From Candidatus Peregrinibacteria bacterium (lineage in GTDB: Bacteria > Patescibacteriota > Gracilibacteria > UBA1369), in assembly GCA_003153355.1 (NCBI GenBank), contig PLYH01000003.1:38325-102324 (forward strand): a DNA stretch of 64,000 nt. Direction: 5' to 3'. Shown here piece after piece: positions 15,992-42,204 of this stretch. The notes under the pieces are model-generated. The model ran no database searches and was not told where the DNA came from. It saw nothing but the letters and a program-made list of their open reading frames with translations. The position numbers and the translations under genes were made by a program. The first letter of the stretch is position 1. The number at the start of each line of letters is the position of its first letter.

Positions 15992-16009
15992 TTCAATCAG
16001 CATAAAACT

Positions 16010-17983: not shown

Positions 17984-18010
17984 AAATTACGAATTACTAA
18001 TTCAAAGGAT

Positions 18011-19311: not shown

Positions 19312-19341
19312 TTGATTTTTGAGCCTAAAACATGGTATAGT
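19312..19341 (+). promoter_or_regulatory. putative strong promoter of the pilin gene
   Basis: TTGATT (19312-19317), an 18-nt spacer including TG, then TATAGT (19336-19341). Extended -10 TGGTATAGT. Located in the 100-nt gap after pilC. Confidence 0.5.
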
Positions 19342-19396
19342 ATATGGAAAGAAGAGAAATTTAATTTTACAAATAATAAATATTAACCCAAAAAAA

Positions 19397-19915
19397 ATGA
19401 CAAATCCTCACTCCCTGAAAGGTTTTACCCTCATTGAACTTTTGATCGTTATTACGATCATCGGTATCTTGGCTGTTGCGCTTTTACCATCGGTACTCGG
19501 AGCTCCGGCACGCGCCCGTGATGCTGCACGCAAGGCTGATTTGAATAACATTATTGCGGGACTTGAAACCTACGACAGTGACCACCAAGGTTATCCAGCT
19601 GCTGTTAGCCCAACTGGAGATTGCGTACAGGATATGGCAGGTATTGCAAATTATTTCCAAGGCGGAAAAGCACCGGTTGATCCTCAAGGTAAAGGTCTTA
19701 AAACATGTACAGGAGCACCTTTAACTGGCAGTTATGTTTATTGCCAACTTTCAGGCAATCCGGCAAATTATGTCATTATTGCACAAATGGAAGTTCAGGG
19801 AGATGCGAACAGCACTACTCTTGCAGCACCTTTATCTTGCAGCTCTACTGGAACAGCTCCGGCATTGGTTACTCCAACTTCTGCTGCTCCTTGGTATTAT
19901 ATTTTAACGAAGTAA
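19397..19915 (+). CDS. type IV pilin (prepilin with class III signal peptide)
   Basis: MTNPHSLKG|FTLIELLIVITIIGILA is the canonical G|F(T)LIE cleavage/methylation motif with Glu+5. Cys residues lie in the C-terminal half. The ORF-track start 19319 lies upstream of the predicted promoter. Confidence 0.85.
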   Translation: MTNPHSLKGFTLIELLIVITIIGILAVALLPSVLGAPARARDAARKADLNNIIAGLETYDSDHQGYPAAVSPTGDCVQDMAGIANYFQGGKAPVDPQGKGLKTCTGAPLTGSYVYCQLSGNPANYVIIAQMEVQGDANSTTLAAPLSCSSTGTAPALVTPTSAAPWYYILTK

Positions 19916-19932: not shown

Positions 19933-19961
19933 AAAGCCCCGCATTCGGCGGGGCTTTTTTG
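19933..19961 (+). terminator. rho-independent terminator after the pilin gene
   Basis: GCCCCGC / GCGGGGC stem, ATTCG loop, then TTTTTT. Confidence 0.8.
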
Positions 19962-20608: not shown

Positions 20609-23600
20609 ATGCAAACTTTTCGATCACAATACAAAAATTTCCAACGGAATATTGCGGGATTTCTCATCTTCAGTTTGGGAGTGCAAATGCTCCAGATTCC
20701 GATCGTGAACGCGGCGCCTTTTGTGTTCCCGACGAGTCTTGAGCAACAGGCAAACACCGGTTCAAACACCGTTGCAGAAAATAACTGGGGAGTTGTCGCA
20801 ATTTTGGTTGAGAGCAGTCTGCTGACCGATACGACAAATTATCCGGGAATGATTTCGAGTTATGCTTCTGACCTGAAAGCGCAATCACTGAGCGACCGCA
20901 TCCAGCGTTATGCGATCGACGTACAGAGTTCGCAGGAGTACACCAAGTCGCTCATCATCAAGGTTGATAAAAATGAAAAAGTTGACCAGGTCGCCGCGGC
21001 TTTGGAAAAACTTTATCAGGAAGGAGACGGCACTCCGAATGAAATCACGAAACTTTCCGGAGTTGTTATCATCGGCGATGTGCCTTTGCCGGTGGTAAAC
21101 AAAAAAGGCAACCACTTTGTGAGTCTTTTCCCGTACACGAATTTTGTTGATAAAGCATATATTTTCAATGCGACCTCCGGCGAATACGAACCGAATCCGG
21201 ATCTTAAGTTTCCAAAACAGGACGTTTGGGACGGCGTCATCAAACCACCGGTTGCAGATGATACTGCGGGCGACGACGGACGCCAGCTGCTCGCAAGTTA
21301 TTTTGACAAGAATCATCTTTTCCATTTGGGCCGTCCGGATTTTGCCCAGTTCGACAAGAAATCGCTCGTTGCCGATCTCTACAACGAGTTCAAGGGCATG
21401 AACACTTCGTCCTACGCAAGTTACCTGCGCTATCTGGCGCACTGGGAAGATTTTTCCTATCTGCGTTACAGCAAAACTCTGGCTCTCCAGTTTTACCAGG
21501 AGGTTCAGAGTCAGCTCAAGGACCAGGGTTTGACTGACCAGCAGCTTCAGCCGAAATCCACCTGTGACCCTCAGTGCGTGATTCAGAAAAATTCACGCAA
21601 TTCGGATTTTGACGGCGACGGCTACAGCAACGGTTACGAACTTGAAGTGGGAACAAAACTGGCCGATGGCACAAATCAGCCGACGGATCCGAACAGTCCC
21701 GACAGCGTTCCTCTGGATTTAACGGCATTCCCTCCAAAACTCCGGACCGATCCGGATCCAAAAACTTATAAATCCACGGATGACGGCAGCCACCTTGATC
21801 GCCCAGATCCTCCTCCGGGAAGTTCAAGCGTGGAAGATTCTTTTAAAACTCTTCCGGATGTTCAAAGCAAACAGATCATCACTAATTTCATAGACCAGTA
21901 TTCCCAGCTTTTTGATAAATTCCTCGGTGTCGTCAATGACTGGACCGATAATACGGGGAGGTATAAATCCAGCTACCTTGATGGAGGCGGAATAAATCAA
22001 AGTGATGTGAACAGTCTGTCTTCGCTCATCGGCATCAAGGACGATTACACTTCGCATTATCTGCGCATGGTCAATGATACGGTCGAACAGAAAATCGACG
22101 CGGTCATTGAAGGCGCCGTTTCGAACATCGGATATACCTTCAACAGTGTTCCGGAAGGAACGCAGCTGTTCTTTAATTTTACGCTTGGTTCCGGAAGTAC
22201 CGCTTCGCTTGCTCCCGGCATGAATTTAAGGATCAGCGATAATGCGGGCGGAAGTTCAGTCGTGACCGTGACTTCAATCGTAAATTCTTCCAGCTTCATC
22301 GTTCAGCAGGTGGTCGGACCGATCGCCAAAGGCGCGAATGTGGTGATCGTTAATCCCGGCGCAAGATTGTACGGGCAGGTTCAAATGCTGAAAGGCGCCA
22401 AAATTACCGGAACTTTGACGTACAGCAGCGACAATTCGGTTCACAATCTTACCGAAGCGGACTTTTTAAATTTCTCAACGCACACGCTCGGTTTTTGGGA
22501 CAGTCTTTTCATTAATGGAAGCGCGATCGCTTCGAGCTTTCCGGCAAGTCTGGGCAGTTTGTTCAATCCGGCGTCGAGCATTGCCAGCTGCATGCTCTAC
22601 CGCGGCTCCAACGACAACACCGGGAAAAATTCGGTGATGGTTCAGGCGGTACGCACGCTTGATCCTAAAACGGCAGGCAAACCCGGCGATAACACGGCCT
22701 ATGCTGAATGTTACGGGAATAATATTCTCCATCCTGAACGCTGTTTCCCGGTTGCGGCACAGTCGCCGATTTTCGACATCAACGGAACCAAAGCAATAAC
22801 ACCAGGCACGGTTTCGGATGCTGCCACCGATTACCGCTCGTGTTTTGATTTCAAAGAAAAAACCCGTTTCCAGGATTACGTTAATGAAGTGAACAATTAT
22901 ATCAGCCAGCTTGACGGAGCCGACAATGAACAGGCCAAGTCAGCGATTGCTTTACCGGGATCTCCATACCGTCCTGCGGATCAGATCAATTTGTATAACG
23001 CAGACGGCATCACCATTACTCTCGCCGATATTCTTAATTCTTTCGGACGCGGCGACGGTAAAGACAATGACGGCGACGGCGTGATTGATAACGCCGCGGA
23101 AAGCAGTACTACTTACGGCATCCCGGTCAACGACTGGCAAAGGATCGGTCAGACTTTGCTCCAAAAGAGCCAGAGTTATTTGTTTAACGGCACTCCGGAA
23201 CCTTTCGCAGGCGTAAAAAGTTTATCGCTTCAGGTTGATCCGGCTGCAGCCACGGATTCCAGTTCAAATAATGTGTATCTGGACAGTATCACCTATCATA
23301 AAGATCCGACCAACCAGACGATTGCCGATCAGTTGAAAGCCGGCGGTTACGCCAATTCGATGCCGATCGATAATCCTCGTTATGTGACGTTCCAGGATAA
23401 AAGCACGGATAAAACTTACCGTAAAGTTGTTTATCCGGATGTTTTCCAGGCTACATCGTACGATGATTTTGTGAACCAGCTGAAAGCGAAAGAAACTGAA
23501 ATTCAGAATATTGCCAATGCCAGCGGAATTTCCGTGAACATGAGCGGACAGCTGACCGGGCTTGTCAACGGCAGCCAAGATATCTTTACGAGTCCGAACG

Positions 23601-26600
23601 ATACCGCACTTACCATTGCAGGTTCGGCTGATCTTACCGATTCGTTCGCATGGAGAGACATGAATATCGATACAAAACATGCGTACGCTCTTTCCCATTA
23701 TTTATCCAATCTTGCGAGCTACAATCCTTATGCGGCTCCTGTTCCTTCCGGTTATGAAACAACCTACATCGTCAGCAAACCCGCTGAAGATCCGGTGACG
23801 AAACAAACGTCGGACGCGCTGGTGATGCGCTTTAACGGAAACTATCCGCAAAGCGAAGTTGATCCCGATTTCCAGGCGGGACAAAATCCTCCGACAACTC
23901 CGATAACGGGGCCCGGGGGCGGCGCTCCTTCAAACTCTTCCGGCGATTTTGGAAGTTTCTGCGGACAGTCCGGACCGAGCGTGATTATTTTTTCCTGGTT
24001 CTGCGCGATTACCGACTGGGTGAAACAAACAGCCAAACTCATGAGCGCAACGGTTTCGTTGCAGCCCGCTTGTACGATTCCTACCAGTTCCCTGAATGAT
24101 GCCCTTCCGGCTCCTTTACCATCAAATGATTTGGGCACAGGACCGAACGGCGAAGTGCAACCCGGCGGAACCGGAGGTCCGGACAAGACGACGAAATTTT
24201 TAATCAGCGCGAGTAAGGACGCCTTGAAAACGGGCTCCTCGGATACTCTTATTATTAATATTGAAGGAGTTTCCGGATCGAACGTTGTACAAACCGGCGA
24301 CAGCAAAACTCTTGTGGATTTGAATATTTCTCAAGTAAACGGCAAAGATATTGCAGTTCCGATTTCCACGCATCCGGCCCAGCTCCACAACGGAACCGCA
24401 AACATTACGCTGGAGTCAACCAGTGACGAAGGCGTGTTTACGGTCAAAGGCATCAGTCCTTCAACACCTTCGCTTGGTTCGAATACCTTAAGCATCGCTT
24501 CGACGAAAGGGTACATCAGCATTCTGACCTACACCAAAAACGGCAGTTTAAATCTGGGGCAGATTACCGGCGCAGGATTTATTATTAAAAATAAAGACGA
24601 TAAAATCGTTGCCGACGTTGACGGAACCACGGGCATGGTGACCATCACCGATTCCGGTTATCAGCTTATTGCGCTGCCTTCAAAAGCCGATAAGGCTGCG
24701 CGTCTTGGAGTGCAGGAAAAAGCGACCGGGACAGTTATTGCCAGCGTATTTTTCGTGGTGGATAAAACAAAGCCGGTGGTCCTTGATGACGAGACCATGG
24801 ACTATTTCGCAAAGTATAAAGATCTGACCGGCGTACATGTCCAGGATCTGAACATTGCCGATCCATACAGCGTTGAAACTGTCGGTGCGGACAATGTTTC
24901 AAATCCGAGCGGCGCTTATATTTACCTGAACCAGGGCACGAATAAAAAGAAAATCGGCATTGTGGATACGATGGGAAATATTTTCATCGATCCGTCGCTG
25001 GGCTTTCAAATGAAACCGGCCGCGACAAGTTCCAGCCCGGTGGTTTTCCAAATCACTGACGGAAGCGGCAAAGAACTTTTCAACGTTTATCTTGCGGCGA
25101 AATATCCGAAGATTCAGATTCTTGCGCCTTCCGGCGATTTCCAGGATTTCAATCTGATCGCTTTTGAAAACAACATGAAAGCAGCCGGCATGAGCACTAT
25201 TTCTCAGGGTGTCGGTTCGATGCTCAGCGGAAAACTTTTAGGTTATCTCGATTCGACCGTCGCTACGACCGCGCATGCGCAAGACGTTTCTTCCACCCAG
25301 AATTTTTCATCATCGCAGCAGGTCAAACATCAGATTCCTGATACGGATAACGACGGCCTGAACAACATGGATGAAATTATCTTGGGAACGGCTTACAAAA
25401 ATCCCGACACGAACGGTAACGGAACCAAAGACGGTCAGGATATTTTAAAAGGCATTGATCCGATCAAGCCCGGCAACGTTCCGATTTTTTCAGACATCAA
25501 TCCGTCAAGCGAGGGCTTTGCAGACATTATGAAATTGTACCGACGCGGCATATTACATGGTTATCCTGACGGTACGTTCAGACCCGATCGCGCGATCAGC
25601 CGCGAAGAGTTCACGAAGTTTGATCTCGGCAGCATTTGTATTCTCTGCGCGCACTTTAATGATGCGATCAAAAAAGCCGTGGACCTGATTTATCATCAGA
25701 GTCCGTTCCCTGATAAAAACATCACGTCTTCACTTCTGTACTGCGTGGAAGAGTCCAAGAACCGCAGTCTTATCAGCGGATACCAGGCCGGTCCGCAGAA
25801 AGGTTATTTTATTCCTCAGGCGAACATCACCCACGCAGAAGCCACAAAAGATCTTCTGGAAACGGCGCGGCAGCAAAATAATACTTCAATAAAATTTGTC
25901 GATCCTTCGGTGGGCGCAGGAAAACCGTGGTTCTATACATACGTTCTCACCGCGCAGCAGGAAAAACTTTTCCCGCCGGGAAGATTTTCGCAGCTCGACA
26001 CCATGGATCCGCAATCTTTCAAAGCGTGGTTCGACAATGAACTCAACAATCAGAACAGCACGTTCGTTGCGTGGCTTTACGCGGACATAACGCGTACGGA
26101 ATTCGCCATGATGACGTCGCGTCTTATTGATAAGGCCGACTGTTATCTGGACGATCAGGACGGCGACGGACTTCCTGATAATTATGAAAAATATGTTTTC
26201 GGAACAGATCCGACCAATCCTGATACTGATAAAGGCGGTGTGGATGACGGCACTGAAGTCGCAAACGGCATGAATCCCCTTGATCCTTCCGACGACGCAA
26301 AACTTCTGGACAGCGACGGTGACGGACTTTCCGATTACGATGAAATTCATGTGTATCATACCGATCCGCATAAAGCCGATACGGACGGTGGCGGCATTGA
26401 TGACGGCACTGAAGTGAAGAACGGAACAAATCCTCTGGATCCTAAGGACGATCATCTGTTTGACGGCGATCACGACGGCATGCCGGATGAATGGGAATTG
26501 AAAAACGGATTGAATCCGCATGATGCTTCGGACGCAAATAAAGATCCTGACGGAGACGGTCTTACGAATCTTCAGGAATATCAACACGGTACCGATCCGC

Positions 26601-29600
26601 ACAATCCTGATACGGACGGCGGCGGCGTGAATGACGGCGATGAAGTTCTGCGCGGCACCGATCCTTTGAATAAAGCTGATGATCACAAAATTTTGAAGGG
26701 CGATGAAGGCGGTTACATTGTCGGCGATAAAGTTTTCGACAATTATGTCTATGGCACTCCGAGCGATTCCGCGACCGTAGGCTCTGAAAGTTTGGATTAT
26801 ATTGATGACATTCCTGCAGACGGACAAACCAGTCTGGTCGTCCGCGCGGAAGTTAAGAACGGTAACGGAGATACTGATAAGACCACGGACGGAGAAACAA
26901 TGGAGTTCAAAACTTCCGAAAACAATACCGGACCTTACGCCGTTCTTAACCCGACGGCCGTAAAGGTGAAACAAGGCATCGCCGAAACGAACATTCAAGC
27001 AACGACTTTGGCCGGTGAATATATCGTTACGGCGGATCTTAAAGGTTTGCCTGTTCCCGCTGATGACCATTCGGTCTTTGTGACGCCGCTTGATCCTGCA
27101 AAAATCGTTATGGACGCGGACTCCCACACGCTCAAAAACGGCGGGCTTTCCAATACGATCATTCACGCCAAGCTTGAGGATGTGAACGGAAATTTAGCGA
27201 ATAATAATTCTTACCGCGCTTCATTTACGGTCGACGGTCCTGGAACTCTTGATGCTTCCAAAGATGAAGATCCGGCGACAGACGGAATTCAGATGACGAG
27301 CGTCACAGGAACGTATGATCTTATGCTCACAACAACAGCAGACCCCGGAGCCATTAAAATTCATGCGACCTATCTTCCGGACACCAGCCTGCTTGACGAC
27401 AGCGGAAGCACTCAACAGTCCGACACCCAACAGGCTGCCGCTTCAAGCGTCACGGGCGATATGACGATCCAGTCGCGCAGTGATTTGAAACTCCTCGTGA
27501 ATGCCGACAAATCCAGCATTCCTTCTGACTTCACCACAACGGACGTCCTTAATGTAAGCATTGTCGACGGCAGTAATAATCTGGTCAGCGACTTTGACGG
27601 GACGGCCAAATTCAACCTGGATAACACCTCACTCGGACAGCTTACCGCCGGTGCGGAGCAGGATGTTAAGAGCGGCATCAGTAAAGCGATCTTCCAGTCT
27701 TCAAATCATTCCGGAAGTGAAAATATTACGGTGACGGTCGCAGGATTTGATCCGGCAACGACCACCATCAAGACACTGCCGAAAGCAGCGAAAAAAATTA
27801 CCCTGGAAACTCCGCGCGCGACGATTGAAAACAATACCAGCTCTACGGCGGACATCGTCGCAAAGCTTTACGATACCGACGATAACTTTGCCTCCAACGA
27901 TTCTTCAACCTTCGTTACATTTAACCTCACGGACGATACGAAAGCTTACGGAACGTTTGACGGATCGACAACGGTTCAGGCGCAAAACGGCATCGCGAAA
28001 ATTACGATCCGAGGAACTTCGCAAAGCGGACCGCTCAACGTGGTGGCCAAAGGCACGAATCTTGTTACCGCTTCTGCGAGCCTTGAATCCGTCCAGCTTT
28101 TCCGCTCACAGGATCTTAAGAATGCATCGCCGCGCACACTTTTTGCGGCGCTCCTGGGAAGTGATTACGGAAATGTTTTTGATGAAAACTATTTTGGAGG
28201 TTGGTTTGTATTCAGCGGGACCACCGAAAGCGCCGTTTCATTATTGAGTGCGCCGAAGCCGAATTTACAACTCGCCAATGTTGACGCAAACGGCAAGGTT
28301 ACTGTTTTTGATACGAACTCTCTGGATTCGCGCGTGATTCCAGGCAATGCTCCGAACCTGCCGACACGCGTTGTTTTGACGAACCCGGACAGTTCCGAAG
28401 ATTTAGCCGAAGTATTTACCGTCTACAAACCTACATCGCAAACCAAAGCAACGATTCTTGATGCGAGCGGACAAGTTGATCCGACACAGGAAGGCATTTA
28501 TGTTCAAAGCATCGCAAAAAACACCGACTACTCAATCCAGCAAGTTTCTGATGGCGTAGCCATTTTGAAAAAAGGCAACGAAGCGGTCCATGTTTATAAC
28601 TCCGGTTCGATCAAGATTGTGGACAACAGTTTCCAGCTGCAGCTGGTTCAAAGCGATACGCAGCAATTTTTGACATTCAAAGTGACGGACAATTCCGAAG
28701 ATGTCGCCCAACTCACTGCAGTCGCAAATTTAAGTAATGATGTCGGACTCCTTGGTACGGACTTCAATTTTAACGGCACGGCAAGTTTAAAGAGCGGAAC
28801 CTATTTCCACATGCTCTCGGACAAAGACCAGTACCGCGGACAAGTGACGTTCTCCGGAGATTCTTCGGCCAACCCGCGCGGAATGGCTCTGACGGATATG
28901 ACCCAGAACATGCCAAAATCCCAGGCTCCGGGTTTCAGTTATATTTCTCTGGAAGCAAGTCCGGAGCAGGCCGGTATCGGCTACACCGGAGACAGTAAAT
29001 TTATGCTGCTTTTTGCGGCGGGAAATTCCGCTGGCGAATCCACTATGCCGTACTCTTCGGAAATCGGCGTGGTGCTTGGCGATCCGACGGTCCGTCTCAA
29101 TAATAAAATCAATGTTTCAAAAACCGGCTACACCAAAGATGTCGGTCAGGAAATTTATTTCGGCAGCGAAAATATTCAGGACATTACCCCGATGGATTAC
29201 AACGGTGACGGACTCACGGATCTGCTCGTCGCTTATACGGACGGAAGAGTCAGGCTGCTCCAGAATAACAAAGCCAATCCGCGTTTTGTAGATAAAGGAA
29301 TTCTGCTGGATTTTCCGAACGGCATCATCAGCATGACGACGGGTGACTTCAATCATGACGGACTGCAGGATCTGGTCGTCGCGACGAAGGACAGCTGTCG
29401 ACAGGGCGAAGTATGTATCAACGAATATGAAAATCATCACGGAAATTTTGTTTTGAAATATCTGCCGCTCCAGCCGTTCACGGATAAAAACCAAATTTCC
29501 ATGATACGTTCTGCAGACCTGAACGGAGACGGATATGATGATCTGATAACTTCGGATGATACGGGAGCGATCCGCGCGTTCTACAACAAGCACGGCGAAT

Positions 29601-32600
29601 TTGATACGAACGGCCAGTTTATCGGATCACTCGGACTTCATATTGATAACACCAAAAATCTGAAGACAGAAGTTCTGGTCGCCTACGACGGCATGCCCGT
29701 GAACGATCCGAATAAAACTGACGATGATCAATATTTTGTTGATCTTCAAGTCACCAAAAATCAATCCGATCTTACCGCTGCCGACAAAGCGAATCTGGGA
29801 ACCGACAGCAACGGAAATTCTCAGATTTTAAGTCCAGGCGACGCTGCCGGCCTTGCCGGGCTTCAAGGCGGTCCAGCGAAGATCACGCTGCCTCCTGCAA
29901 CCGTTCAGGTGCCCGAACCTTTTGTTTATCTTGATGCCGATCTTGATGTTTCCCATTCGCTCATCACTTCGGAAAAACGCGCAAAAGACGCAACAGAGCC
30001 TTACAATGTTCTGGCCGACAATGATACGGTCCAGTACAGCGTTATATTAAAAAATACTTCATCGCATGATCTGAACAATTTCATGTTCAGCGATATTGCT
30101 CCATCGAACATGACGCTGGACCAGACGACGATGCAATGCAGCGATTGCGGAAAATCAGACAATCTGAAATTTGATGCCACCGGCGAAAGCATGCGTCCTT
30201 ATATCGTTTCAGGATTTTCAATCCCTGCAGGTCAGACCAGAACATTTACCTACAGCGGAGTTGTGGGCAGCACGCCTCGCGTAAAAATCTTTACCGGCAA
30301 AAATCTGACGAAGAGTTTGCCAAGCAATGCGTTGCCGATGATCGGCGCTTCACCGGACAGAAATACCAGCGGACGCATGACCTACTATTATGCGACGTCC
30401 GTTGATCCTGTAACGCAATACGTCAATTACAGTTCCTTCACGACTCCTCCGTCTTCGCCGGCGCCGATCACTCCAGGCAATCCGCAGTTCCCGAATTTCC
30501 CAACCAGCAACGGCGACCTGGGATCAGTAAACAGCGACGGCGTTCCGAACAGCGTTGCCGGGTTTGAACAAGGCTTGATGAATAACGACAGTGACGGCGA
30601 CGGTTTGCCGAATCTTTATGATGATTTGAACGGAGGTTTAAATTCCATCGCAAACGCGACCCAAGGAATTCTTGCAGCATTATCCTGTTCTCAAGGATGT
30701 ATCCCGATGCCGCTTAACTTCGCGTTCCTGGCGCCGGGAGTCATTAATGCGCTTGGCATTCCTGTGGGTTTTGATCCCGGAACACCCATTTTCTGCTGGG
30801 GCGTACCTCCGCTGCTCTTTATCGGCGCGGGACCGATTTGTTACGGCTCATTAGCCGGAAGACTTTATCTGTCACCAACTTTAACGGCGAGTCTTGGCAT
30901 GGGAATCTGTCTCGGTCCATATCTGGCCGGACAATGTTTTGCCTTTAAATTACCGATCGACATGATTCCGTCAGGAATATGCGATGCCATCCAGTCGGGC
31001 ATTGATAATGCGATGTCATCTGCCAGCAGTGCCATTAATTCAGCCGGCAATTCAGGCATGATTCAAAGCGGCCAAAGCGCGGATTCAACCGGGCGAAGTA
31101 CCACAGGAGGCATGTCCGGCAGCACCAATTTAGGTAATTATTCTTACAGTGCAAGCGTGGGAACGAACTTTAGGATACCCAGCTTCCCCGCGGTTATTAC
31201 GAAGTGGCTTGAAGATCAGTCCAGTGAAATCGTGAATAAACTCACCGATCTTCCTGATTTCTATTTCATTTATCCGGATGTGAATTCAATCGCCGGAGCT
31301 TTTGTACCTCAAAAAGGCGCCAACCAGGGCGGCGGACAACCTCAGGCCGGTGTCCTGCAGTCACTGAATCCTACCGGACCAAGTCAGGGCGGCAATCAGG
31401 TTCCGAGTTTCAGTTCAAATCCGCTCGCGAGTGACCCGGCCAAGAGCGTCTTCAGAACCGTGCTCTCATCTCCGAGTAAAATTTTGAGTTATCTGAACAG
31501 CATTCCGCTCATTCAAATTCAGTCGCAGGAAGTGGCCATTAAGATTCCTGCTTTAACCGCGGCGGAAATCGCCAAACTGAAAGCTGATGCGCAGCAGTGG
31601 GTTGAAGATGAACGCAATGAAGTGAACCGCGCACTGCAGGTATGGAGTTGCGGTTATGAGCAGCTTGATCAAAACTGGACGCCTCAAAAATCCGGAACAA
31701 ACGGAACTCCAGGCGCTTCGGCTTCTCCATATCAAACGATGTGCGACAAACTGATCGTGGATATGAGCGCGCTTCGCAACAGCGTTGAAAAAAATCTTGA
31801 TGCTTTGCAAAAATATCTGGAACTTCCGCGCAAGATTCTGGCATGGAAAAATATCGCCGCGAAATATTTGTACCAGATCATCTGTTATCTGGATACAATC
31901 ATGCAGTACACCGGCGGTTATATCAAAAAACAAACCGTGCGCGTGCTGACGTGGATCGGCATGATCAAGAAAATCCGGCAGCTGCTGGAAACCTGGAAGC
32001 TGATCATCAGTCTTATCGTGGATTATCAGGCATCGTGTGACCGCTGCAGTTCATCGCGCTTTACGTTGCTTCAGCTGATTTTGCAGCTGTTTGCCGCCAT
32101 ACCGTCGCCGCCGATCATACCGTTCCCCAAACTGCCGGATATTTATCTGGACGTTTCTCAAATTCAAATCGGTCTGCATATTTTGTGGCCTGACATCAAA
32201 TTTATTCCGGAACGGATTCTGCTTCCAAAGATTCCGCGGATCACTTTGCCGGATCTTCCGACGCTTACGTTGCATCTGCCGGCAATTCCGATTCTTCCAG
32301 ATCCGCCTAATCTGCCGGAACTTCCTGATCTTCCGCCGTTACCGCTTCCGACCCTGCCGGATATTCCTCCTGCGCCCGCTGTTCCCGGACTTCCGGATCA
32401 AATCAAAGCGGTGATCGAAATTTTGAAAACTATCATTAAAATTATTTGTCTGATCCGCAAAGGTTTGATTCCGATTCCGGAATTGAATCTTAAATCTCAG
32501 ATTGAACAGCTAACCGAGCGTCCGCTTACTCCGCTTATTCCGCTGGATCTTGCGGCAATGCTGCAAATTCCGCCGATCAAATATCAGTACGTCGACCATA

Positions 32601-35600
32601 TAGAAATCAAAGCGATTTTAAATCTGCAGCTGGATTTCAGTCCTGTTTACGACTTTGTTCAGGGCATCGCCAACGTGTGGAACAATCTTTCGACGGATCT
32701 TGTGGAGAAACTGAACAAGTCGCTGCAAGATGCCGCTGCCGCTGCAAGTTCGGTCACTTCCGCTGCTACGGCGGGCGGAAATGCCGTGACCGGAGGCGGA
32801 GGAAATATTAACGTCGGAGGCAAATCCAGTGCAGTAATGCAATTACTCGCCCAGGTTCAATCGGCACAAACACAAGCAGGTCAAACGACCATCAGCCAGG
32901 ATGAAATTACCAAACTGTTCGCCGATAATTCACAGGCGCTTGTTGATGTGGCAAGCCTGGACGTTAACAAAGTTCCTCCGGCAAACCTCAACAAAATGCT
33001 CGCGGATCTTGAGAAGAACGATCCGATGCTCGGACATTATTTAGCCGAGTATCAACAGGCCGGAAAAGATCTTCAAAAGACCGTGGCCCAGTATGCCCAG
33101 CAAAATACGACGATTCAAAAAGATATTCATTTGGCCGCAACACAGCGTTATTTGAGCAAAGATGATCCTCTGCTCAACCAGCCGATCGACCAGATCAAGG
33201 CACGCATTTCGACTGAAGATAAACCTGAATATGACGGCCAGAAACAAGTTGCCCAGCTGCGCGATGCACTCATCGCATACACCGACGACAGCAGCCATCT
33301 GATGGATCAATTGGGAAATACTTCCGATCTGAATCAGACCGTAAGCATTCTCGCCCAGGCTCACAGTCTCAATGATTATCTGCCTCAGCCGGGACAGGAC
33401 AACAGCGGACCATTTTATGCTTCAGCTGCACAGAGTGATACAGCTGCGAACACTCCGGCTGTTGCAATGGCGAGTCTCGTGAACGATACGTTCCAGTCTT
33501 TTGCTGACGGCGTGAAGAAAGATTTAAATGATGAGCTGCCTTTGCTTGCTGATTCAGGTTTGCCTCCGGTTCCAACGACACCTGGTTCAAACGGACTTAC
33601 CGAACAGCCGAAAGGCATTTATATCTACAATGCTGATCTGGGCGTCAACGAGCGCCTGATTGAATACACTGACGAGGCCGATAGTCCGTCTCAACTTTTA
33701 TTCATGGATGTTTATAACAACGGCGTACAGGATGCCATCTACAGTTTTGGCGGAAATATTTACATGAAAGAAAACTATAACGCTCCGCGTACGAAAGTTT
33801 ATTACGGCGGAGTTCCGCAAACAAAAAATCTCATCGACTTAATTCCGGCAGCGCCGTCAGTGAACAGCTTCGTTTCAAATTATGTTAATAACAAGAGCGT
33901 TGATCTGAGCTGGAAAGCTCCGACCCAAAGCGATGTTTCCGGATACCAGATTATTTACAAACTGATGCCGGATGCTTTTGTGGAGAACATCAGTCCGATC
34001 ACTCACAAAATTGCCGTGATCGTTCAAGCAGCGGCTGCCACAGCAACACCTGCAACAGTTGTCGTGAACCAGGGAACGTATATGCTTGACGGCCAGAGTC
34101 CTCCAGATAACAAAGCGCCGTCGGGATCTTCCATTAATACGCAGGCAGGCAGTCAGATCACTCTTGATTACGGAGCTTCAGGAAAAATTACCGTTCCTGA
34201 AAATACGACTGTAAAAATTCCGGATATCACTTCTCCATATAACACTGCGCAAGACGTCAACGGAGATTTGTACTTTGACGGCACCAAGCGCACGATTGTT
34301 GTTCCAAACGCCAGCGGATTCAGCGTAACTCCAGGTGAAATCATTCACACCCTTAATCCTGCCAAGTTTACACTCAACGTGGCGGGTACTGCACAAGGGG
34401 AATACGATCTGCCGGTGAACACAGAATTTACCATTCCGACAGATATTCAAGATGCCATAAGCGTTTCTGTTTCTGACGGCGACATTGAAGTGATCGATCC
34501 TCAAACCATCGTCCAGCATCAAAAACTCATGAGCGGCCTGATGCTTGATTTTGATACGCCGATTACATCCGAAGGTGGCAGCGCGCGCGTCATGTTCGGC
34601 GACGGATCTTACGATTATATTGCCCAGGGCGAAGATCTGATGCTCAAGAAACTTGATACGCCGGATAAACCACAAGTTCATCTGGATATCACCAACGGTT
34701 TCTATTATGCGAAAATTCAATCGTTCGACCACCTGGGTTCATTAAGCACAAGCTCGGAAATGCAGCTGCTGGCTCCGTCGATCTGCGCCGATAAAGAACC
34801 GCCACTTCCGAACGGCGGACCTTCAGACCGCACAACGTACATCTTCAAGGCTCTGACGATCGATGCTTCAAAATCTTTTGATACCAACGGCAAAATTATT
34901 TCCTACTACATTGATACTGATCCGACCACAGACAGCGATCACGACGGCGATCCGACGGATGATAAGAATGTGTGCCACGACGCCGATGTAAACACCGACA
35001 CCGACGGTGACGGGATTCCGAACAATGATTGCAGCGATCCGGTCTTTAAACTCGGTCCGTATCAGGATCTTAATGACCGCAAAGTAGTGCTCAACGTGGT
35101 TGATGAATCTTTGAACCGGTCCCAGCAGCCGATCACCATTCATGTGGTGGTTCCGGGAATTTCACTTGATCAGGATGCCGCAACTTCAGGTGTGGCATCG
35201 GGCAATCTTGATGTCCAGGAAAGCGATATTCCGGTCGGCCTGATCCGTGACCGAGGCGGTGTTCTTACTCCGATTGCGACGAAGAGCGCCAATGACAAAG
35301 GCAAATATTTCACCGACGATCAGGGGAAATTTAAAGTCGGCGATATGAATTTGACCGACACGATCGTGATTAAAAACAGCAAAGGCGACATCATCGGTGA
35401 AATCGATCCGAAAACCGGCCGCATCATTTTGAAAGATCCTAATTACGAAATCGATGTTCTTCCGGCTGAAGCGCCGCTGCTGCCGACACGCGTAGTGGTC
35501 AAACAAAAGAGCGACGGAACAATTATTACCGCTCTCTTCCTGGTTCCGGATGTTAATACTGATACGACCATTGATGATCCAAACTTACCGTACAACAAAA

Positions 35601-37438
35601 ATACCACCGCCTTGTTTAAAGGCGCCCATATTAAAGATGATAATGGTTTTGACCAGTTCCAATTCAATAAGATCCCGACTAATGATCCAAGCTTCCCGGG
35701 TGGAACAGAAATTATTGATACAACAACTAAACAGAGAGCAGCTGTTCTTGATACCGGCGGCAATTTCTATCCTTATGACAGCCATTTGAGCCTTCAGCTT
35801 CAAGATACTTCCGACTTGAGTGATCCGCTCGTTATCGAAATACTTTATACAAAAGATGCTTCAACGCCTCCGGCAATTATCGGCGAGTTCAATATTGCCG
35901 TTCACAGCAATAAAGGCGTACAGATTTTATCTTCGGATAAATTCCAGACGTACACGGCACAAAATTCCCAACCGCTGCCTCAGCCGCCGAAGGTGCAGAC
36001 GATAGCGCCGGTTCCTGCGCTGCCTCAGCCGGCTCCGTTTAATGACGTGAACCCGACTACTCCGGATTACCAAAGCATCTTAAATCTTTACCAGAGACAT
36101 GTCCTTGATGATCTGCTGGGATCATCGGCCAATAAAGCTGCATTCGGCCCTGATGTTCCTCTGCTCCGTTCTGAATTTGCGGACATCATGCTGAAAATTT
36201 TCTGTATCGTTCCGAGAACGGAAGCTTACCAGTCGCCTCCTGCATTTACCGATATTCCATATGTTCAGGGAAACTTGCCTTGGTATTATGCCGTGACAAA
36301 AGAAGCTTATTTCCGCGGATTTATTACAGGATATAAAGCTGAAATTGATCCTACCACCGGTAAAACACCGTTCAAACCTGATGCAAATATCAGCAGAGCG
36401 GAAGCTGTCAAAATCATTCTTGAAGCTTTGCAGAAACAGGGCGTGATTGATATGGGACAAGTTCCGGTCGTTGCTCCTTACTATGCTCCGTATATCCAGA
36501 TTGCCCAGGATCTTACGCCTTACCTTAAAGAAAAGAGCCTTGTCAGCCAGCCTTATATTATTACGGCGGACGAAGCAACGAAGCCTGATGAGATTCTTAC
36601 AAGAAGCGAATTTATCGCCATGGCGGACCGTGTCCTCAAAGCTTACGACTGTTATACGGGCGGCAGCTCTTTCATCAACAGCATAACGCCGAATGTCGGA
36701 CCAAGTTCCGGCGGAACTGCAGTTACCATCAGCGGCGCTAATTTTTCACCGAATTCCACACTGACTTTCAACGGCGTTCCTGCCGATAATGTAAAAATTA
36801 TAAACTCAACAACAATCCAGGCTGATTCTCCTGCTCAATCCGGCCCCGGACCTGCGGATGTCGTTGTCACCAATCCAAATTCTGCGTCAACGGTGTTAAA
36901 AAATGGTTTCACGTATCAAGGTTGCAGTCCAAAAGTGAGCAGTATAACTCCGAATTCCGGACCGATGCCGGGAGGTACCGTCATAACCGTTAAGGGCTCC
37001 TGTTTCAATGATCAAACGGCACTTGATCTTCAATCAAAAGGTAATGGCTTACCTGCTCATGTGACGAAAGTTGTTGTTTTGAACAGTACGACGATCGTCG
37101 CAGAAACACCGCCTGATGTCACAGCTGGTCCGGCTGATCTGATTGCTACAAATCCTAACTTCCCGCCAGATACGTTTAACAATGGTTACACCTATACAAC
37201 ACCTCCGGCTGAAAATAATGTTGATCCTCGGCAAAACCTTGGCGAAGGCATCTATGTCATACAGCCGCAATGTAATGTATGTCCTTGTCCTTCAACCATC
37301 GATCACACCGCGGACATTATTCCAGGCGACAAACTTTTTGCGGTAATTTCCAATGACGACAATTCTCAAATCTTCAGCAAGAGTAACGTCGTTGAAATTA
37401 CCGCCATTCCCGAAACCCCTCCAGTAACCGCCGAATAA
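20609..37438 (+). CDS. giant secreted, SLH-anchored multidomain surface protein (5,609 aa)
   Basis: A single uninterrupted 16,830-nt ORF. Sec signal peptide (h-region [22 protein letters not shown]|AP). The modular content is listed as sub-features below. All antisense ORFs are short or repeat-driven. Confidence 0.92.
25485..26130 (+). other. first SLH (S-layer homology) triplet inside the giant protein
   Basis: [42 protein letters not shown] is a textbook SLH motif. Two further degenerate copies follow (FPDKNITSS...ISGY...ITHAEA and FVDPSVG...ITRTEFA). Confidence 0.7.
26150..26685 (+). repeat. array of thrombospondin type 3-like Ca-binding repeats (three roughly 60-aa super-repeats)
   Basis: Recurrent DxDGDGLxDxxE and TDPxxxDTDGGGxxDGxEVxxGTNPLDPxDD units. 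The similarity is also visible at DNA level. Confidence 0.8.
26800..28080 (+). other. four consecutive bacterial Ig-like (invasin/Big_1-type) domains
   Basis: Four roughly 95-aa units. Each starts with an ADG/SSxAD-type strand (for example [20 protein letters not shown]) and ends with a G.A...I.A......I.V.A pattern. Confidence 0.55.
29180..29600 (+). other. FG-GAP/VCBS-type repeats
   Basis: [38 protein letters not shown] and [23 protein letters not shown]. Confidence 0.7.
29995..30270 (+). other. DUF11-like (conserved repeat) beta-sandwich domain
   Basis: [32 protein letters not shown]...[15 protein letters not shown] resembles the DUF11 repeats of the gene at 61573..64000. Confidence 0.5.
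30668..31010 (+). other. Cys/Gly/Pro-rich hydrophobic module of unknown type
   Basis: [108 protein letters not shown]. Eight Cys in about 115 aa and almost no charged residues. Confidence 0.6.
31850..32590 (+). other. amphipathic/hydrophobic helices flanking a Leu-Pro repeat tract
   Basis: [14 protein letters not shown]...[11 protein letters not shown]...[13 protein letters not shown] comes first. A roughly 100-aa tract of (I/L)P-x-(L/I)P repeats follows ([59 protein letters not shown]). It ends with [18 protein letters not shown]. Confidence 0.6.
33846..34030 (+). other. possible fibronectin type III-like segment
   Basis: The pattern [24 protein letters not shown] is typical of FN3 strands B-C. 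Only part of the domain is recognisable. Confidence 0.35.
34780..35150 (+). other. PKD-like domain interrupted by TSP3-like Asp-rich loops
   Basis: [24 protein letters not shown]...[11 protein letters not shown]...[11 protein letters not shown]...[24 protein letters not shown]. Confidence 0.45.
36038..36650 (+). other. second SLH triplet inside the giant protein
   Basis: [23 protein letters not shown]...[10 protein letters not shown]; [30 protein letters not shown]...[11 protein letters not shown]; and a third copy ending [14 protein letters not shown]. Confidence 0.7.
36672..37200 (+). other. two IPT/TIG domains
   Basis: [34 protein letters not shown]...[11 protein letters not shown]...[10 protein letters not shown] and [21 protein letters not shown]...[11 protein letters not shown]...[10 protein letters not shown]. 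Confidence 0.75.
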
Positions 37439-37467: not shown

Positions 37468-38085
37468 ATGAAAAAGCTGATCCCACAATTCAAATTTAAG
37501 CCTCTCACCATGACGGTGATCCTGGCTATGGTGCTGTTTTTCGGAAACTCGCTCCGTCCGACCGAGGCTCAGGTTGCCGCACCTCCGGTTCCATATCCTG
37601 TTGCTCCGGCGGTTGGCGATACAACCGCAGCAAACAACGCCTGCGCTCCGGCAATGGCTGATTTTTCATCAAAACTGCTTGCTGATTTCCGGACATTTTT
37701 GGATACGAATTTCCAGAATAAAGCATCCACCTCGTCGTTGCTTGGAGTTGCCATGGCCAAATACACCCAGATGCGCGATCAACTCTATACGGCCTGGGGC
37801 CAATACTTTCCGAATCAGGGCGTTCCACTCGCCACCAGCGGCGTTCAGCCGGGACAATGTTTACAGATTGTGAACCAGACTCTTTCCGATGCCCAGATTC
37901 TTTTAAGAGACCACGCAGTTCGGACTTCGGGTGTGAAAAAATCCACGGCGCTGCTGGAAAAATATCAGCAGATTAACGCCGAGCTCGCCAATTTATACCA
38001 ACAGTTTGTTTATATGCAGGGATATTTGAATAGTTTTTCCAATAAACTGCCCTGCTACGTCAAAAAGAATTGCGTCAAAGGTTAA
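37468..38085 (+). CDS. secreted protein of unknown family (205 aa), cassette gene 1
   Basis: Signal peptide (TMTVILAMVLFFG...TEA|Q), helical Q/L-rich body, C-terminal CYVKKNC. Confidence 0.7.
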   Translation: MKKLIPQFKFKPLTMTVILAMVLFFGNSLRPTEAQVAAPPVPYPVAPAVGDTTAANNACAPAMADFSSKLLADFRTFLDTNFQNKASTSSLLGVAMAKYTQMRDQLYTAWGQYFPNQGVPLATSGVQPGQCLQIVNQTLSDAQILLRDHAVRTSGVKKSTALLEKYQQINAELANLYQQFVYMQGYLNSFSNKLPCYVKKNCVKG

Positions 38086-38086
38086 T

Positions 38087-38929
38087 ATGAAAAAATATCT
38101 TCCTACAATCAGTCTGTTTGTTCTGGGAATACTCCTCGTCTCGATGAGTGCGATGGTGTTTACCTCTAAAGCACAACAAGCGAATCTGAAAAACCCCTAT
38201 GATTCAGGAACTTTAGGCGTGGACGATATTATCGATACCTATAACAACAACATCAACAAGGCGTTCAACAACTACATCAAACTGATGATGACGAATATGC
38301 AGACGAATCCCGATGATCCGAACGGCAAGCCTTTTCATGCCGACGGAACTCCATTCAGTGTTTCCGACTGCTTTAACAGTCCTCAGAACTACAGCACGTT
38401 TTGCGTGGCCGCTAATTTGCTGGGAGGCAATTCGGATGATTGCCCAGCTGTAACGAAGGATAAAACGACTCCGCTTTCCGAAGGCATGGACGCCTTCTGC
38501 CAACTCGGCGGTAATGCTCTGCCTTTGCAGGGATATATGAATTTCATCGCGGCTTTAAAAAAGCGCACACAAAATATTTTCGATACGCAGGCTGATCAGC
38601 AGTGCTTTATTTCAAAGGTTCCGGTCGCCGGTCCGGTTGTCGGAAAATCTTTGTGTTCCACATCAGCATTTTTTGGTTCAATTCCTCTCATCAATCAAAT
38701 CGTAAAAAGAAAAACCGATATCAATCAGGCCATGGATACTGCAAAAAAAGCTCTGGACCAGACTCTTTCCGCGTATGATCAATTGAAAATCGCATGGCCC
38801 ATTCATTTGAAGTACATAAAAATTTATGCCGATCTGGAAAAATACCGCGACAAGATTGTGGACATCCGCCACCAGACGGACATCTTCCCGAAGAAATTTA
38901 TCGATCTTACCACCACGGCCTGCACCTAA
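38087..38929 (+). CDS. secreted Cys-rich protein of unknown family (280 aa), cassette gene 2
   Basis: Signal peptide (ISLFVLGILLVSMSAMVFTSKA|Q), 8 Cys in the mature part, ends ...TTTACT. The start is 2 nt after the previous stop. Confidence 0.7.
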   Translation: MKKYLPTISLFVLGILLVSMSAMVFTSKAQQANLKNPYDSGTLGVDDIIDTYNNNINKAFNNYIKLMMTNMQTNPDDPNGKPFHADGTPFSVSDCFNSPQNYSTFCVAANLLGGNSDDCPAVTKDKTTPLSEGMDAFCQLGGNALPLQGYMNFIAALKKRTQNIFDTQADQQCFISKVPVAGPVVGKSLCSTSAFFGSIPLINQIVKRKTDINQAMDTAKKALDQTLSAYDQLKIAWPIHLKYIKIYADLEKYRDKIVDIRHQTDIFPKKFIDLTTTACT

Positions 38930-38933
38930 ACCT

Positions 38934-40775: not shown

Positions 40776-40778
40776 TAT

Positions 40779-42195: not shown

Positions 42196-42204
42196 GTGAG
42201 ATTG

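Follow-up and report, generated by a model that had tools for sequence, protein, structure and literature searches.

In Omnitrophota, giant genes adjoin T2SS/T4P-like loci and encode proteins of more than 30,000 aa with numerous transmembrane regions and with DEAD helicase domains resembling SecA (bioRxiv 10.1101/2023.11.21.568195). Peribacter riflensis and Vampirococcus lugosii, which belong to the same broad lineage as the bacterium studied here, encode large exported Cys-containing proteins (up to 3,861 and 4,163 aa) alongside type IV pili, and these giant surface proteins, with FG-GAP/integrin, DUF11 and fibronectin-type domains, have been proposed to act in host attachment (PMC4736985, PMC8080830). 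Saccharibacteria use pili and then close-range adhesins; their PilX2 is described as a minor pilin, and PilY1, a related case, as a pilus-tip protein (PMC11623550). In fibrillar adhesins, CLIPPER is a stalk domain (PMC12617251).

The gene described here, which we call the giant, lies in a window of 64,000 nucleotides (the whole stretch of DNA analysed) from a Candidatus Peregrinibacteria bacterium (Table 1). Like the Omnitrophota giants, its product is a very large, mostly unannotatable envelope protein of an ultra-small host-dependent bacterium, and is encoded beside a conserved T2SS/T4P-like cluster with small class-III-signal genes (bioRxiv 10.1101/2023.11.21.568195). However, the Omnitrophota proteins belong to another phylum, whereas ours, at 5.6k aa, has a signal peptide only and is predicted to be SLH-anchored; as far as tested, the two have no family-specific domains in common. 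Neither the Peribacter nor the Vampirococcus paper defines the giant family, the core of its members, the four partner genes or the linkage to a pilin gene (PMC4736985, PMC8080830). With PilY1/PilC and the Saccharibacterial PilX2 the giant shares the arrangement of a calcium-binding, beta-propeller-containing protein adjoining pilin genes, and such a protein might bring about attachment in concert with pilus retraction (PMC11623550). It differs from them in having a Sec rather than a prepilin signal, in being five times larger and in that its SLH domains are predicted to keep it at the wall; no match to the PilY1/PilC family was found with Pfam or NCBIfam. PilY1 is about 1,100 aa long and is encoded among minor pilins. 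Fibrillar or repeat adhesins with CLIPPER/Ig stalks resemble the giant in their signal peptide, Ig-like stalk modules, calcium-binding repeats, wall-anchoring module and putative binding region (PMC12617251). These adhesins consist mainly of long near-identical repeat arrays and evolve quickly, whereas the giant is essentially non-repetitive, colinear over a deep lineage and composed mostly of unique domains. LapA, SiiE and Bap are adhesins of this type. Finally, SLH triplet modules are shared with SLH-anchored wall proteins of monoderm bacteria (e.g. PDB 8bz2/8bys), but it is unusual for a single chain to have two triplets separated by about 3,500 aa, and the remainder of the giant is unrelated to those proteins.

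Table 1. Features of the giant gene and its surroundings, in window positions.
Feature	Position	Strand	Basis
PilN-like (552 aa) and PilO-like (227 aa) bitopic proteins	14333..16693	+	weak PilN match
PilB-type assembly ATPase and PilC platform protein	16727..19297	+	T2SSE E 7e-130, T2SSF E 2e-53; TIGR02538, GspF
Type IV pilin, KG/FTLIELLIV	19319..19915	+	N_methyl; GspG/PilA/TIGR02532
Terminator-like hairpin after pilin gene	19933..19957	+	10 pairs, 7 G-C
Giant gene, 5,609 aa	20609..37438	+	single ATG-to-stop ORF, 5,609 codons
Predicted Sec-type signal peptide, aa 1-35, cleavage VNA/A	20609..20713	+	leader features
N-terminal alpha/beta domain, aa 60-300	20786..21508	+	among most conserved blocks of giant
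82-aa insertion, aa 506-588, unique to this genome	22124..22372	+	median homologue: 17 aa here
Confidently modelled region, aa ~586-1036	22364..23716	+	AF2 and conservation
Repeat 'X' tandem pair 1, aa 1321-1509	24569..25135	+	hhalign probability 99.9% vs pair 3
SLH triplet 1, aa ~1610-1830	25436..26098	+	Pfam SLH 57 bits (aa 1627-1668); PDB 8bz2/8bys SLH
TSP3 calcium-binding array, aa ~1840-2030	26126..26698	+	Pfam TSP3_bac x4, E 1e-17; DNA repeats D1/D2
About four Ig-like domains, aa ~2085-2500	26861..28108	+	Pfam; internal BLAST repeats
Repeat 'X' tandem pair 2, aa 2551-2767	28259..28909	+	hhalign probability 97-98%
FG-GAP (integrin-like) blades, aa ~2850-3010	29156..29638	+	Pfam FG-GAP (aa 2863-2935), FG-GAP_3
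DUF11/CLIPPER-like Ig domain, weak, aa ~3105-3260	29921..30388	+	TIGR01451 E 5e-4
Family-exclusive core, aa 3330-4030	30596..32698	+	conservation, phmmer, AF2, hydropathy
Variable Gln/Ala-rich helical region, aa 4031-4330	32699..33598	+	AF2 helices; low conservation
Isolated FG-GAP-like loop and weak FN3, aa ~4340-4500	33626..34108	+	hhalign, Pfam
Repeat 'X' tandem pair 3, aa 4916-5111	35354..35941	+	hhalign 99.9% vs pair 1
SLH triplet 2, aa ~5136-5350	36014..36658	+	weak Pfam SLH (aa 5239-5266); hhalign to triplet 1
Two IPT/TIG domains	36671..37198	+	Pfam TIG x2, E 6e-21; first aa 5355-5436
Conserved C-terminal tail, aa 5540-5609	37226..37435	+	invariant CxxCPC
d1, secreted, 205 aa, co-operonic	37468..38085	+	start 30 nt past giant stop
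d2, secreted, 280 aa, co-operonic	38087..38929	+	orthologues compared
d3, secreted, 612 aa	38937..40775	+	Gly/Ser/Thr- and Pro-rich linkers
d4, secreted, 360 aa, last gene of operon	40779..41861	+	hairpin downstream
Terminator-like hairpin, 14-pair stem, end of giant-d1-d4 operon	41886..41919	+	

The giant gene, which takes up 1.6% of its 1,034,403-bp contig, is confirmed as real and intact, and not an assembly artefact. About 110 full-length colinear orthologues (4.7-6.2k aa, 27-69% identity) were found across more than 100 independent assemblies. Several of the contigs concerned reach megabase scale, and four of these are titled 'chromosome'. Of 80 species-level loci, 75 have an uninterrupted reading frame; the family uses the standard genetic code. 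Among 101 sequences, 346 positions, including nearly all cysteines, are at least 90% conserved, and the giant keeps 333 of them. No tandem DNA repeats were found within the ORF, and the only DNA repeats are TSP3 units of 70-76% identity. The idea that the ORF is an assembly artefact or a pseudogene has nothing in its favour except the unusual length; the orthologues, the open frames, the conserved residues and the lack of tandem or long DNA repeats argue against it, and leave it next to no probability. The earlier note had described an intact, Sec-exported giant surface protein; the ORF and signal peptide are as described, and we saw no sign of collapse or frameshift. Orthologues, conserved positions and open frames also support the view that the gene is under selection. 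The label 'mosaic' that the note attached to the protein is misleading, since the whole architecture is colinear and conserved throughout the Peregrinibacteria lineage. The sequences point instead to one conserved orthologous scaffold with few lineage-specific additions (82 aa inserted at aa 506-588, the two TIG domains, and TSP3 arrays that vary), and to a predicted cell-envelope protein family conserved across that lineage.

Export is predicted to follow the Sec route. The leader has a basic n-region and an h-region (aa 15-33, Kyte-Doolittle 1.94) that is the sole TM-like segment of the protein; the prepilin motif (G/F..E5) is absent from it, and homologues carry the same kind of leader, likewise without that motif. 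SLH triplet 2 is homologous to triplet 1 (hhalign probability 99.4%, E 4e-21), and the presence of both predicts that the giant is anchored to the cell wall. In characterised bacteria, SLH triplets bind a pyruvylated secondary cell-wall polymer, by which the protein is held on the wall, and a polysaccharide pyruvyl transferase gene lies directly upstream of one distant relative. Since SLH triplets are the standard anchors of S-layers, and the homologues appear in databases under the name 'S-layer homology domain-containing protein', the giant might be the S-layer itself or a major component of its lattice. We consider this decidedly improbable: with a mass of about 600 kDa and dozens of dissimilar domains, the giant looks nothing like the S-layer proteins that form lattices, a search of its domains identified none for self-assembly, and other, smaller SLH proteins in the window are better candidates.

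The giant is flanked by two sets of genes, the adjacent type IV pilus operon and four co-operonic secreted proteins, both of which the earlier note had missed. The pilin gene, whose true start is probably the ATG at 19397, immediately precedes the giant, in the same orientation, in all 47 species loci; PilB and PilC are present in 44 of these, and the PilN-like and PilO-like genes are upstream in 42-43. The hairpin behind the pilin gene makes joint transcription of the giant and the pilus genes improbable. Downstream, the gaps from the giant through d4 are 30 nt, 1 nt, an overlap and 3 nt; the overlap becomes a gap of about 7 nt if d3 begins at its likely start (38937) rather than at that of the listed ORF (38826). 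Orthologues of d1-d4 lie beside giant homologues at 28-45% identity; beside the most distant relatives, too, there are still four secreted genes. Orthologues of d1 were found at L001 and L004, and its signal peptide and a Cys close to its terminus recur in most or all of six genomes; d2 is still detectable at the distant loci L086 and L087; d3 has about 26 homologues, all unnamed, several of which share contigs with giants. The giant and d1-d4 thus have the features of a terminator-bounded operon, whose conserved partners bear predicted signal peptides and are without assigned function. The deep-branching short relatives at L086 and L087 keep the four partners and have no pilus genes nearby, and the pilus link therefore appears to be clade-specific and not intrinsic.

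Near-universal adjacency to genes for pilin, PilB, PilC and PilN/O-like proteins, conservation as strong as is typical of machine parts and not of adhesins, two wall anchors, and a pilus cluster with no secretin gene could together suggest that the giant and d1-d4 form a collar for pilus exit, embedded in the wall and S-layer and replacing a secretin in a cell without an outer membrane. This is possible but unlikely, as no ring-forming or secretin-like domain was found in the giant, its operon is separate from that of the pilus, and the distant relatives retain the giant and partners without adjacent pilus genes. We know of no need for a collar-type part in monoderm type IV pili.

We favour, with about even confidence, the reading that the giant is a wall-anchored host-contact platform working with the type IV pilus. 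Exported by Sec and lacking any internal transmembrane helix, the protein would be fixed on the cell wall by its two SLH triplets. Its own operon, located just downstream of the major type IV pilin gene, would yield it together with the secreted partners d1-d4, and the giant, probably with these docked, would form a fixed, load-bearing structure on the cell surface. The pilus would catch a host cell and draw it inward, and close-range attachment might then proceed through the FG-GAP blades, the Ig and 'X' beta modules and the calcium-binding TSP3 arrays, while the N-terminal domain and the hydrophobic Leu/Pro core may serve a further function common to the whole lineage. The adhesion-type modules present (FG-GAP, Ig, TIG, TSP3 and DUF11/CLIPPER) are consistent with this proposal. 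The pili and adhesins of Saccharibacteria, the giant surface proteins of Vampirococcus and Peribacter and the giant genes of Omnitrophota described above serve as precedents. Against it, conservation this strong and so few repeats are unusual in an adhesin; adhesins that recognise hosts tend to change quickly. About 70% of its length has no Pfam, PDB or fold match, and the best-conserved blocks fall within the portion without recognisable function, so adhesion may be secondary. The probable lack of co-transcription with the pilus genes and the clade-specific nature of the pilus link also weigh against it.

Recognised domains cover about 29% of the giant, in line with the earlier note, which could name no motif for more than half of the length, and ordinary adhesin repeats do not account for the unassigned regions. 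Ten of the twelve modules that it listed are supported. Pfam or NCBIfam matches recover the SLH triplets (the second by hhalign), TSP3, Ig, FG-GAP and both TIG domains, and the Leu/Pro core, helical region and Cys tail are all seen. DUF11 (Pfam aa 3137-3219, E 0.014; homologues carry PF01345) and FN3 (Pfam aa 4426-4452, E 0.006) are detected weakly, and domain searches gave no match for a PKD-like piece. The suggested gingipain/C25 fold found no match in Pfam at E<=10 or in a PDB profile search; Foldseek returned it only at E 0.34-1.3, with a probability of <=0.77, and gave generic flavodoxin-like folds as well. The domain concerned (aa 60-300), which has the conserved motif [10 protein letters not shown]...PYT[DN]F...VW[HD]GVI..PP...YFDKNH, contains no conserved Cys, and the family's conserved His208 is Asp here. 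These weak Foldseek matches, together with the link of Omnitrophota giant genes to cell-wall degradation (bioRxiv 10.1101/2023.11.21.568195), could be taken to indicate that the giant is secreted as a degradative enzyme or as the carrier of a toxin (cell-wall hydrolase, protease such as a gingipain-like one, or polymorphic toxin). Such a role is highly improbable given the residues just mentioned; moreover, domain searches at E<=10 recovered no catalytic family, the C-terminus is invariant and not polymorphic, and Glyco_hydro2_C5, matched twice in the Ig-like region together with Invasin_D3 (aa 2166-2388), is merely an Ig-like accessory domain.

The region at aa ~586-1036 is modelled with AF2 block-mean pLDDT mostly of 61-94, with two low-confidence dips, and has four invariant cysteines (Cys661, 701, 712 and 745); Foldseek against PDB and BFVD gave no meaningful match, and no known fold was recognised. 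Repeat 'X', without a match in Pfam or PDB, is a new family-specific beta repeat of about 95 aa that occurs as three tandem pairs. The FG-GAP blades at aa ~2850-3010 have three DxDxDG calcium loops whose Asp residues are invariant.

The core is among the two or three best-conserved blocks of the giant and is unique to its family: an exhaustive phmmer search gave 423 clusters, all of giants or giant fragments. It has no Pfam match, and its AF2 model (pLDDT about 50) matches no fold. It comprises an uncharged, Gly/Pro/Cys-rich hydrophobic stretch (aa 3340-3460), long helices, and an invariant (LPx)n proline tract at aa 3870-3930. The core might belong to a feeding device that engages the host membrane, perturbing or entering the host envelope as a route for nutrients or DNA, with the stretch of about 110 aa, the helices and the rigid (LPx)n tract as its parts. 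This stretch is the longest nearly charge-free hydrophobic one and has five invariant Cys, the AF2 helices after it reach 73 residues, the core is exclusive and well conserved, and the lineage lacks many biosynthetic pathways (PMC4736985). Even so, we regard the proposal as improbable: no segment of TM-helix grade was found, the low-confidence model of the core shows no similarity to fusion or pore-forming folds, and the hydrophobic stretch may be no more than the buried interior of a folded protein.

Beyond the core, the isolated loop within aa ~4340-4500 matches FG-GAP blades with an hhalign probability of 42%. The TIG position is variable (conservation 0.01-0.46), most relatives having TSP3 arrays there. 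No paralogue of the C-terminal tail was found within the window; in the tail itself, C5555, C5558, P5559 and C5560 are invariant.

The gene at the centre of this analysis is a single ORF of 5,609 codons, running from ATG to stop. The proposal in the earlier note that this ORF is intact is borne out by its composition and by its relatives. GC content within the gene (0.44-0.50) resembles that of the flanks (about 0.46-0.47), so there is no compositional break. No tandem arrays were found in the gene by TRF, and repetition at the DNA level is confined to three TSP3 units with 70-76% identity; repeat collapse is therefore not a concern. The contig carrying the gene is 1,034,403 bp long. Searching with aa 1-5000 gave no fewer than 156 homologues. 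About 110 are full-length and colinear (4.7-6.2k aa, 27-69% identity), and their sources label these as proteins with SLH domains from Peregrinibacteria, Gracilibacteria or Patescibacteria. Colinearity extends along nearly the whole length in a BLAST-based profile and in a 101-sequence MAFFT alignment, where 346 positions (23 Cys) are at least 90% conserved; the protein studied here keeps 333 of the 346. Among 80 species-representative loci, with up to 3,650 codons of available sequence each, 75 keep an open frame throughout that sequence. In-frame TGA is absent from 78 of the 80, so the standard genetic code applies, and code-25 recoding was rejected. Each of 94 species-level genomes has one such locus. 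The huge protein is thus a member of one orthologous family, which is under strong constraint over its whole sequence. One family locus (L071) lies in a MAG labelled Nitrospirota; since its pilB-pilC-pilin-giant order is that of the Peregrinibacteria loci, the contig is probably mis-binned.

The giant protein carries a Sec export signal. Its sole TM-grade hydrophobic segment is aa 15-33, with VNA/A next (the slash marks the cleavage site), and homologues have equivalent Sec-type leaders in which the prepilin motif is absent. It also has the three-SLH-repeat module of SLH-anchored wall proteins, and has it twice: the second triplet, SLH-2, is weak in Pfam and is homologous to the first, SLH-1, in register over 125 columns (hhalign 99.4%, E 4e-21). 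No gene for a CsaB-type pyruvyl transferase (pyruvylated secondary cell-wall polymer) was found within the 64-kb window. Immediately upstream of a distant relative, at locus L086, there is a PS_pyruv_trans gene (CsaB-like polysaccharide pyruvyl transferase), which fits SLH-polymer anchoring.

The other recognised modules are of adhesion and calcium-binding types. Of the domains listed in the earlier note, the signal peptide, SLH, TSP3, Ig-like, FG-GAP and two TIG domains were confirmed by leader analysis or by Pfam and NCBIfam; DUF11, FN3 and the second SLH triplet gave weak matches to these profiles, the last being supported by the hhalign comparison as well, and no PKD domain was found. The DxDxDG calcium loops of the integrin-like FG-GAP region are invariant (D2863/D2867/D2871, D2913/D2917/D2921, D2970/N2972/D2974). 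Only three or four blades are recognisable, compared with seven in a complete propeller, and 1,400 aa further on there is one more FG-GAP-like loop (probability 42%). The TIG pair is a lineage-specific addition, its position being occupied by TSP3 arrays in most relatives. A candidate isopeptide Lys/Asp/Asn triad in the DUF11-like domain was dropped, because 92% of the family has Asp in place of its Asn3240. Together, the recognised modules account for about 29% of the sequence, in agreement with the earlier statement that more than half of the protein has no nameable motif. Beyond them, nothing was found by Pfam and NCBIfam on the whole protein or by Pfam on seven unassigned segments (E ≤ 10), and phmmer of aa 1-5000 against PDB sequences gave SLH matches only.

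Features of the giant-protein locus and of other genes in the window (nucleotide positions unless marked aa, which are residues of the giant protein)
Feature	Position	Strand	Details
Two ORFs	2199-5288; 43626-44903	-	1,029 aa; 425 aa; no Pfam match
Pilus genes	upstream of giant gene	+	PilN-like, PilO-like, PilB-type ATPase, PilC, type IV pilin, in that order
Pilin ORF	19319-19915	+	listed from TTG 19319
Hairpin	19933-19957		strong; 3' of pilin gene
Antisense ORF	19967-20275	-	102 aa, coiled-coil-like
Giant gene	20609..37438	+	5,609 aa
Insert	22124-22372 (aa 506-588)	+	82 aa, beta-rich; only in this genome, missing even in 69%-identical relative
'X' repeat	aa 1321-1509, 2551-2767, 4916-5111		tandem pairs of a ~95-aa beta repeat; self-comparison, probability 97-99.9%
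SLH-1	aa 1627-1668		Pfam SLH, 57 bits; PDB SLH chains 8bz2/8bys
TSP3			four units; Pfam/NCBIfam
Ig-like			Glyco_hydro2_C5 (two) and Invasin_D3; Pfam/NCBIfam
FG-GAP, FG-GAP_3	aa 2863-2935		Pfam/NCBIfam
DUF11, fn3			weak matches; Pfam/NCBIfam
TIG			two domains; Pfam/NCBIfam
Core element 1			~110-aa, almost charge-free, Gly/Pro/Cys-rich hydrophobic stretch
Core element 2			long helices, predicted (AF2)
Core element 3			invariant (LPx)n proline tract
Genes d1-d4	37468..41861	+	secreted proteins
Hairpin	41886-41919		14-pair; closes giant-d1-d4 unit
HTH_17 gene	42205-42669	-	
Second surface-protein cluster	55543-63993	-	includes unknown 720-aa and 463-aa proteins; also a protein (≥806 aa) bearing four strong DUF11/CLIPPER domains, nearly to window end
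Paralogous SLH proteins	58004-59002; 59014-60057	-	332 aa; 347 aa with three SLH stretches

The best-conserved blocks are the N-terminal alpha/beta domain (aa ~100-300), the FG-GAP blades, aa 3800-4000, aa 4700-5100, SLH-2 and the CxxCPC tail. The block at aa 3800-4000 belongs to a Leu/Pro core and has a mean identity of 57% across the family. When the core (aa 3330-4030) was searched exhaustively with phmmer through 1.84 billion representatives, 423 clusters were recovered, essentially all of them giants of 3.4-6.1k aa or their fragments, so the core is exclusive to the giant family. The N-terminal domain alone, as a word-seeded query, returned only four fragments and told little. Elsewhere in the window, neither the core nor the N-terminal domain nor the Cys tail has a paralogue, and the 'X' repeat, which is new, has no relatives in Pfam or by profile search of PDB. 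The structural check suggested in the earlier note, AlphaFold followed by Foldseek, was run for aa 37-1200 and aa 3290-4420 and yielded moderate models with no significant fold match. With 15-row alignments, AF2 gave mean pLDDT values of 60 and 50, respectively; block means at aa ~586-1036 are mostly 61-94, with two low-confidence dips. Foldseek found nothing significant against PDB for either model (best E 0.078), nor any meaningful match for the N-terminal model in BFVD, where the sole hit had an rmsd of 40 Å. For structural study, the analysis yields domains without a known relative: the N-terminal one, the region at aa 586-1036, the 'X' repeat and the core. As to the insert at aa 506-588, the closest relatives (63-69% identity) run directly from ...IEG.. 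to ...MLKGA..., and this segment may be a domain acquired recently, or an element that confers specificity.

A faint resemblance of the N-terminal region to gingipain/C25-like folds, tentatively raised in the earlier note, is not supported by the sequence evidence. There is no Pfam match to Peptidase C25 (gingipain) or clan CD profiles at E ≤ 10, and a profile of the N-terminal domain found nothing among PDB sequences. No Cys, catalytic or otherwise, is conserved in aa 60-300, and the family's conserved His208 is Asp in the protein from this window. Foldseek did return Kgp/RgpB, only at E 0.34-1.3 (probability ≤0.77, TM about 0.2) and among generic flavodoxin-like folds, from a domain whose pLDDT reaches 71-87 only in its first part (aa ~57-156). 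The protein was also considered as a polymorphic toxin or contact-dependent inhibition effector, and this is disfavoured: in place of a variable C-terminal toxin domain followed by an immunity gene, the C-terminal tail is invariant and the downstream genes encode conserved secreted proteins.

The giant gene lies behind a set of pilus genes. The 198-aa pilin is a canonical type IV pilin (KG/FTLIELLIV); a start at ATG 19397 would give a normal short prepilin leader (MTNPHSLKG/FTLIELLIV). We surveyed 47 species loci whose upstream sequence spans at least 6.5 kb, and a same-strand pilin homologue is found upstream of the giant gene in all 47. Of these loci, 44 have PilB and PilC, 43 the PilO-like gene and 42 the PilN-like gene. 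We rejected the possibility that the giant is itself a modular pilin or minor pilin, since it lacks the class III signal (G/F-x-x-x-E): the leaders of the giant and of d1-d4, the four secreted-protein genes that follow it, are Sec-type with AxA-like cleavage sites, and the class III signal occurs only in the upstream pilin. Neither Pfam nor NCBIfam matches the PilY1/PilC C-terminal propeller family in the giant, whose propeller-type repeats are FG-GAP. Direct tests thus disfavour readings of the giant as an enzyme, a toxin, a pilin or an artefact. The gene in the pilin-giant gap (694 nt here) differs between loci, encoding 41 aa in L001 and 222 aa in L004, so the antisense ORF found there in this genome may not be a conserved gene.

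Downstream, 30 nt separate the giant gene from d1 and 1 nt separates d1 from d2; d2 and d3 overlap, or are ~7 nt apart if d3 begins at its likely start, 38937, and d4 follows d3 after 3 nt. These short gaps, and the hairpins after the pilin gene and d4, indicate that the giant gene and d1-d4 form a 21.3-kb operon beside the pilus operon. The same gene order and orthologous neighbours are found beside homologues at 45%, 33% and 28% identity. All four partners encode signal-peptide proteins with no family match. No paralogy among them was detected by hhalign, BLAST against the giant reached at best E 0.18, and a search with d3 recovered only unnamed, lineage-restricted homologues and low-complexity noise. 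We compared d1-d4 across six genomes (that of the window, L001, L002, L004 and the deep-branching L086 and L087), in most of which a Cys lies within the last 1-6 residues (e.g. ...TTTACT, ...KNDCS, ...NGRVC); L086 departs from this pattern in d1, d2 and d4, and L087 in d2. As the number of highly conserved Cys in the giant is odd, these near-terminal Cys may serve intermolecular disulfide tethering. The L086 and L087 giants (3.2k + 0.7k aa and 4.1k aa) are without the X1-SLH1-TSP3-Ig block, and these loci have no pilus genes nearby and retain four secreted genes downstream. The giant and d1-d4 are thus the ancient unit, and the placement behind a pilin is a trait of the main clade. Across the family these four secreted proteins always come after the giant, and within the main clade the pilin gene always precedes it. 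At L086 (6628-10040), the N-terminal domain is in a separate 726-aa ORF overlapping the main 3,175-aa ORF, reflecting either a frameshift or a true split. Beyond d4, GC falls to 0.37 at 42001-44000, a segment with the HTH_17 gene and small ORFs. An HTH_17 gene has the same position in L001, L002, L004 and L087, and may therefore regulate the operon.

Members of the Peregrinibacteria and related lineages are abundant and ultra-small, have not been cultured, and are thought to live at the expense of other cells. We rate the giant as an envelope protein of such an ultra-small host-dependent bacterium, and its modules, secreted partners and conserved pilus-gene neighbourhood lead us to infer a wall-anchored host-contact platform that would act after pilus-mediated capture. 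This reading follows the two-step capture model proposed for Saccharibacteria (PMC11623550) and what has been proposed in general for the giant surface proteins of related lineages (PMC4736985, PMC8080830). Given the unusual conservation and the unexplained core, there is room for three other readings, namely a pilus-exit collar, a device that engages the host envelope, or an S-layer role, though for S-layer or stalk components the proteins of the second surface cluster are better candidates. A more elaborate version, which we consider improbable, is a hitherto undescribed, Peregrinibacteria-specific, contact-dependent host-interaction machine made of the giant and its four partners. The pilus would reel in the host, and the core would then bridge or breach the host envelope for nutrient or DNA uptake, by means of a hydrophobic segment that is uncharged, rich in Gly/Pro and braced by disulfides, together with its very long helices and invariant (LPx)n rod; the near-terminal Cys conserved in most d1-d4 orthologues would tether these proteins covalently to unpaired invariant Cys residues of the giant. 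Known systems offer partial parallels. Giant genes beside T2SS/T4P-like loci have been described for Omnitrophota (bioRxiv 10.1101/2023.11.21.568195), and our giant shares such a conserved neighbouring locus. Unlike those proteins, which exceed 30,000 aa and have many TM regions and a SecA DEAD helicase domain, it is 5,609 aa long, has a single hydrophobic segment, at the N-terminus, and gives no helicase match. Repeat (fibrillar) adhesins have long tandem stalk arrays, whereas the giant has no TRF arrays and only about four Ig domains, three pairs of 'X' and four TSP3 units. In one survey the Peregrinibacteria phylum ranked with those bacterial phyla that are richest in proteins >5,000 aa, none of them functionally assigned (PMC11573180), and the searchable literature gave us no account of the family studied here, of its core, the 'X' repeat or the four partners, or of its link to the pilin. 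The giant, d1-d4 and the pilus operon jointly take up about 2.7% of a 1-Mb contig, and this cluster offers a specific candidate, open to testing, for the apparatus of host contact in Peregrinibacteria. A gene pair similar to the paralogous SLH genes of the second cluster is located inside the pilus cluster of L001.
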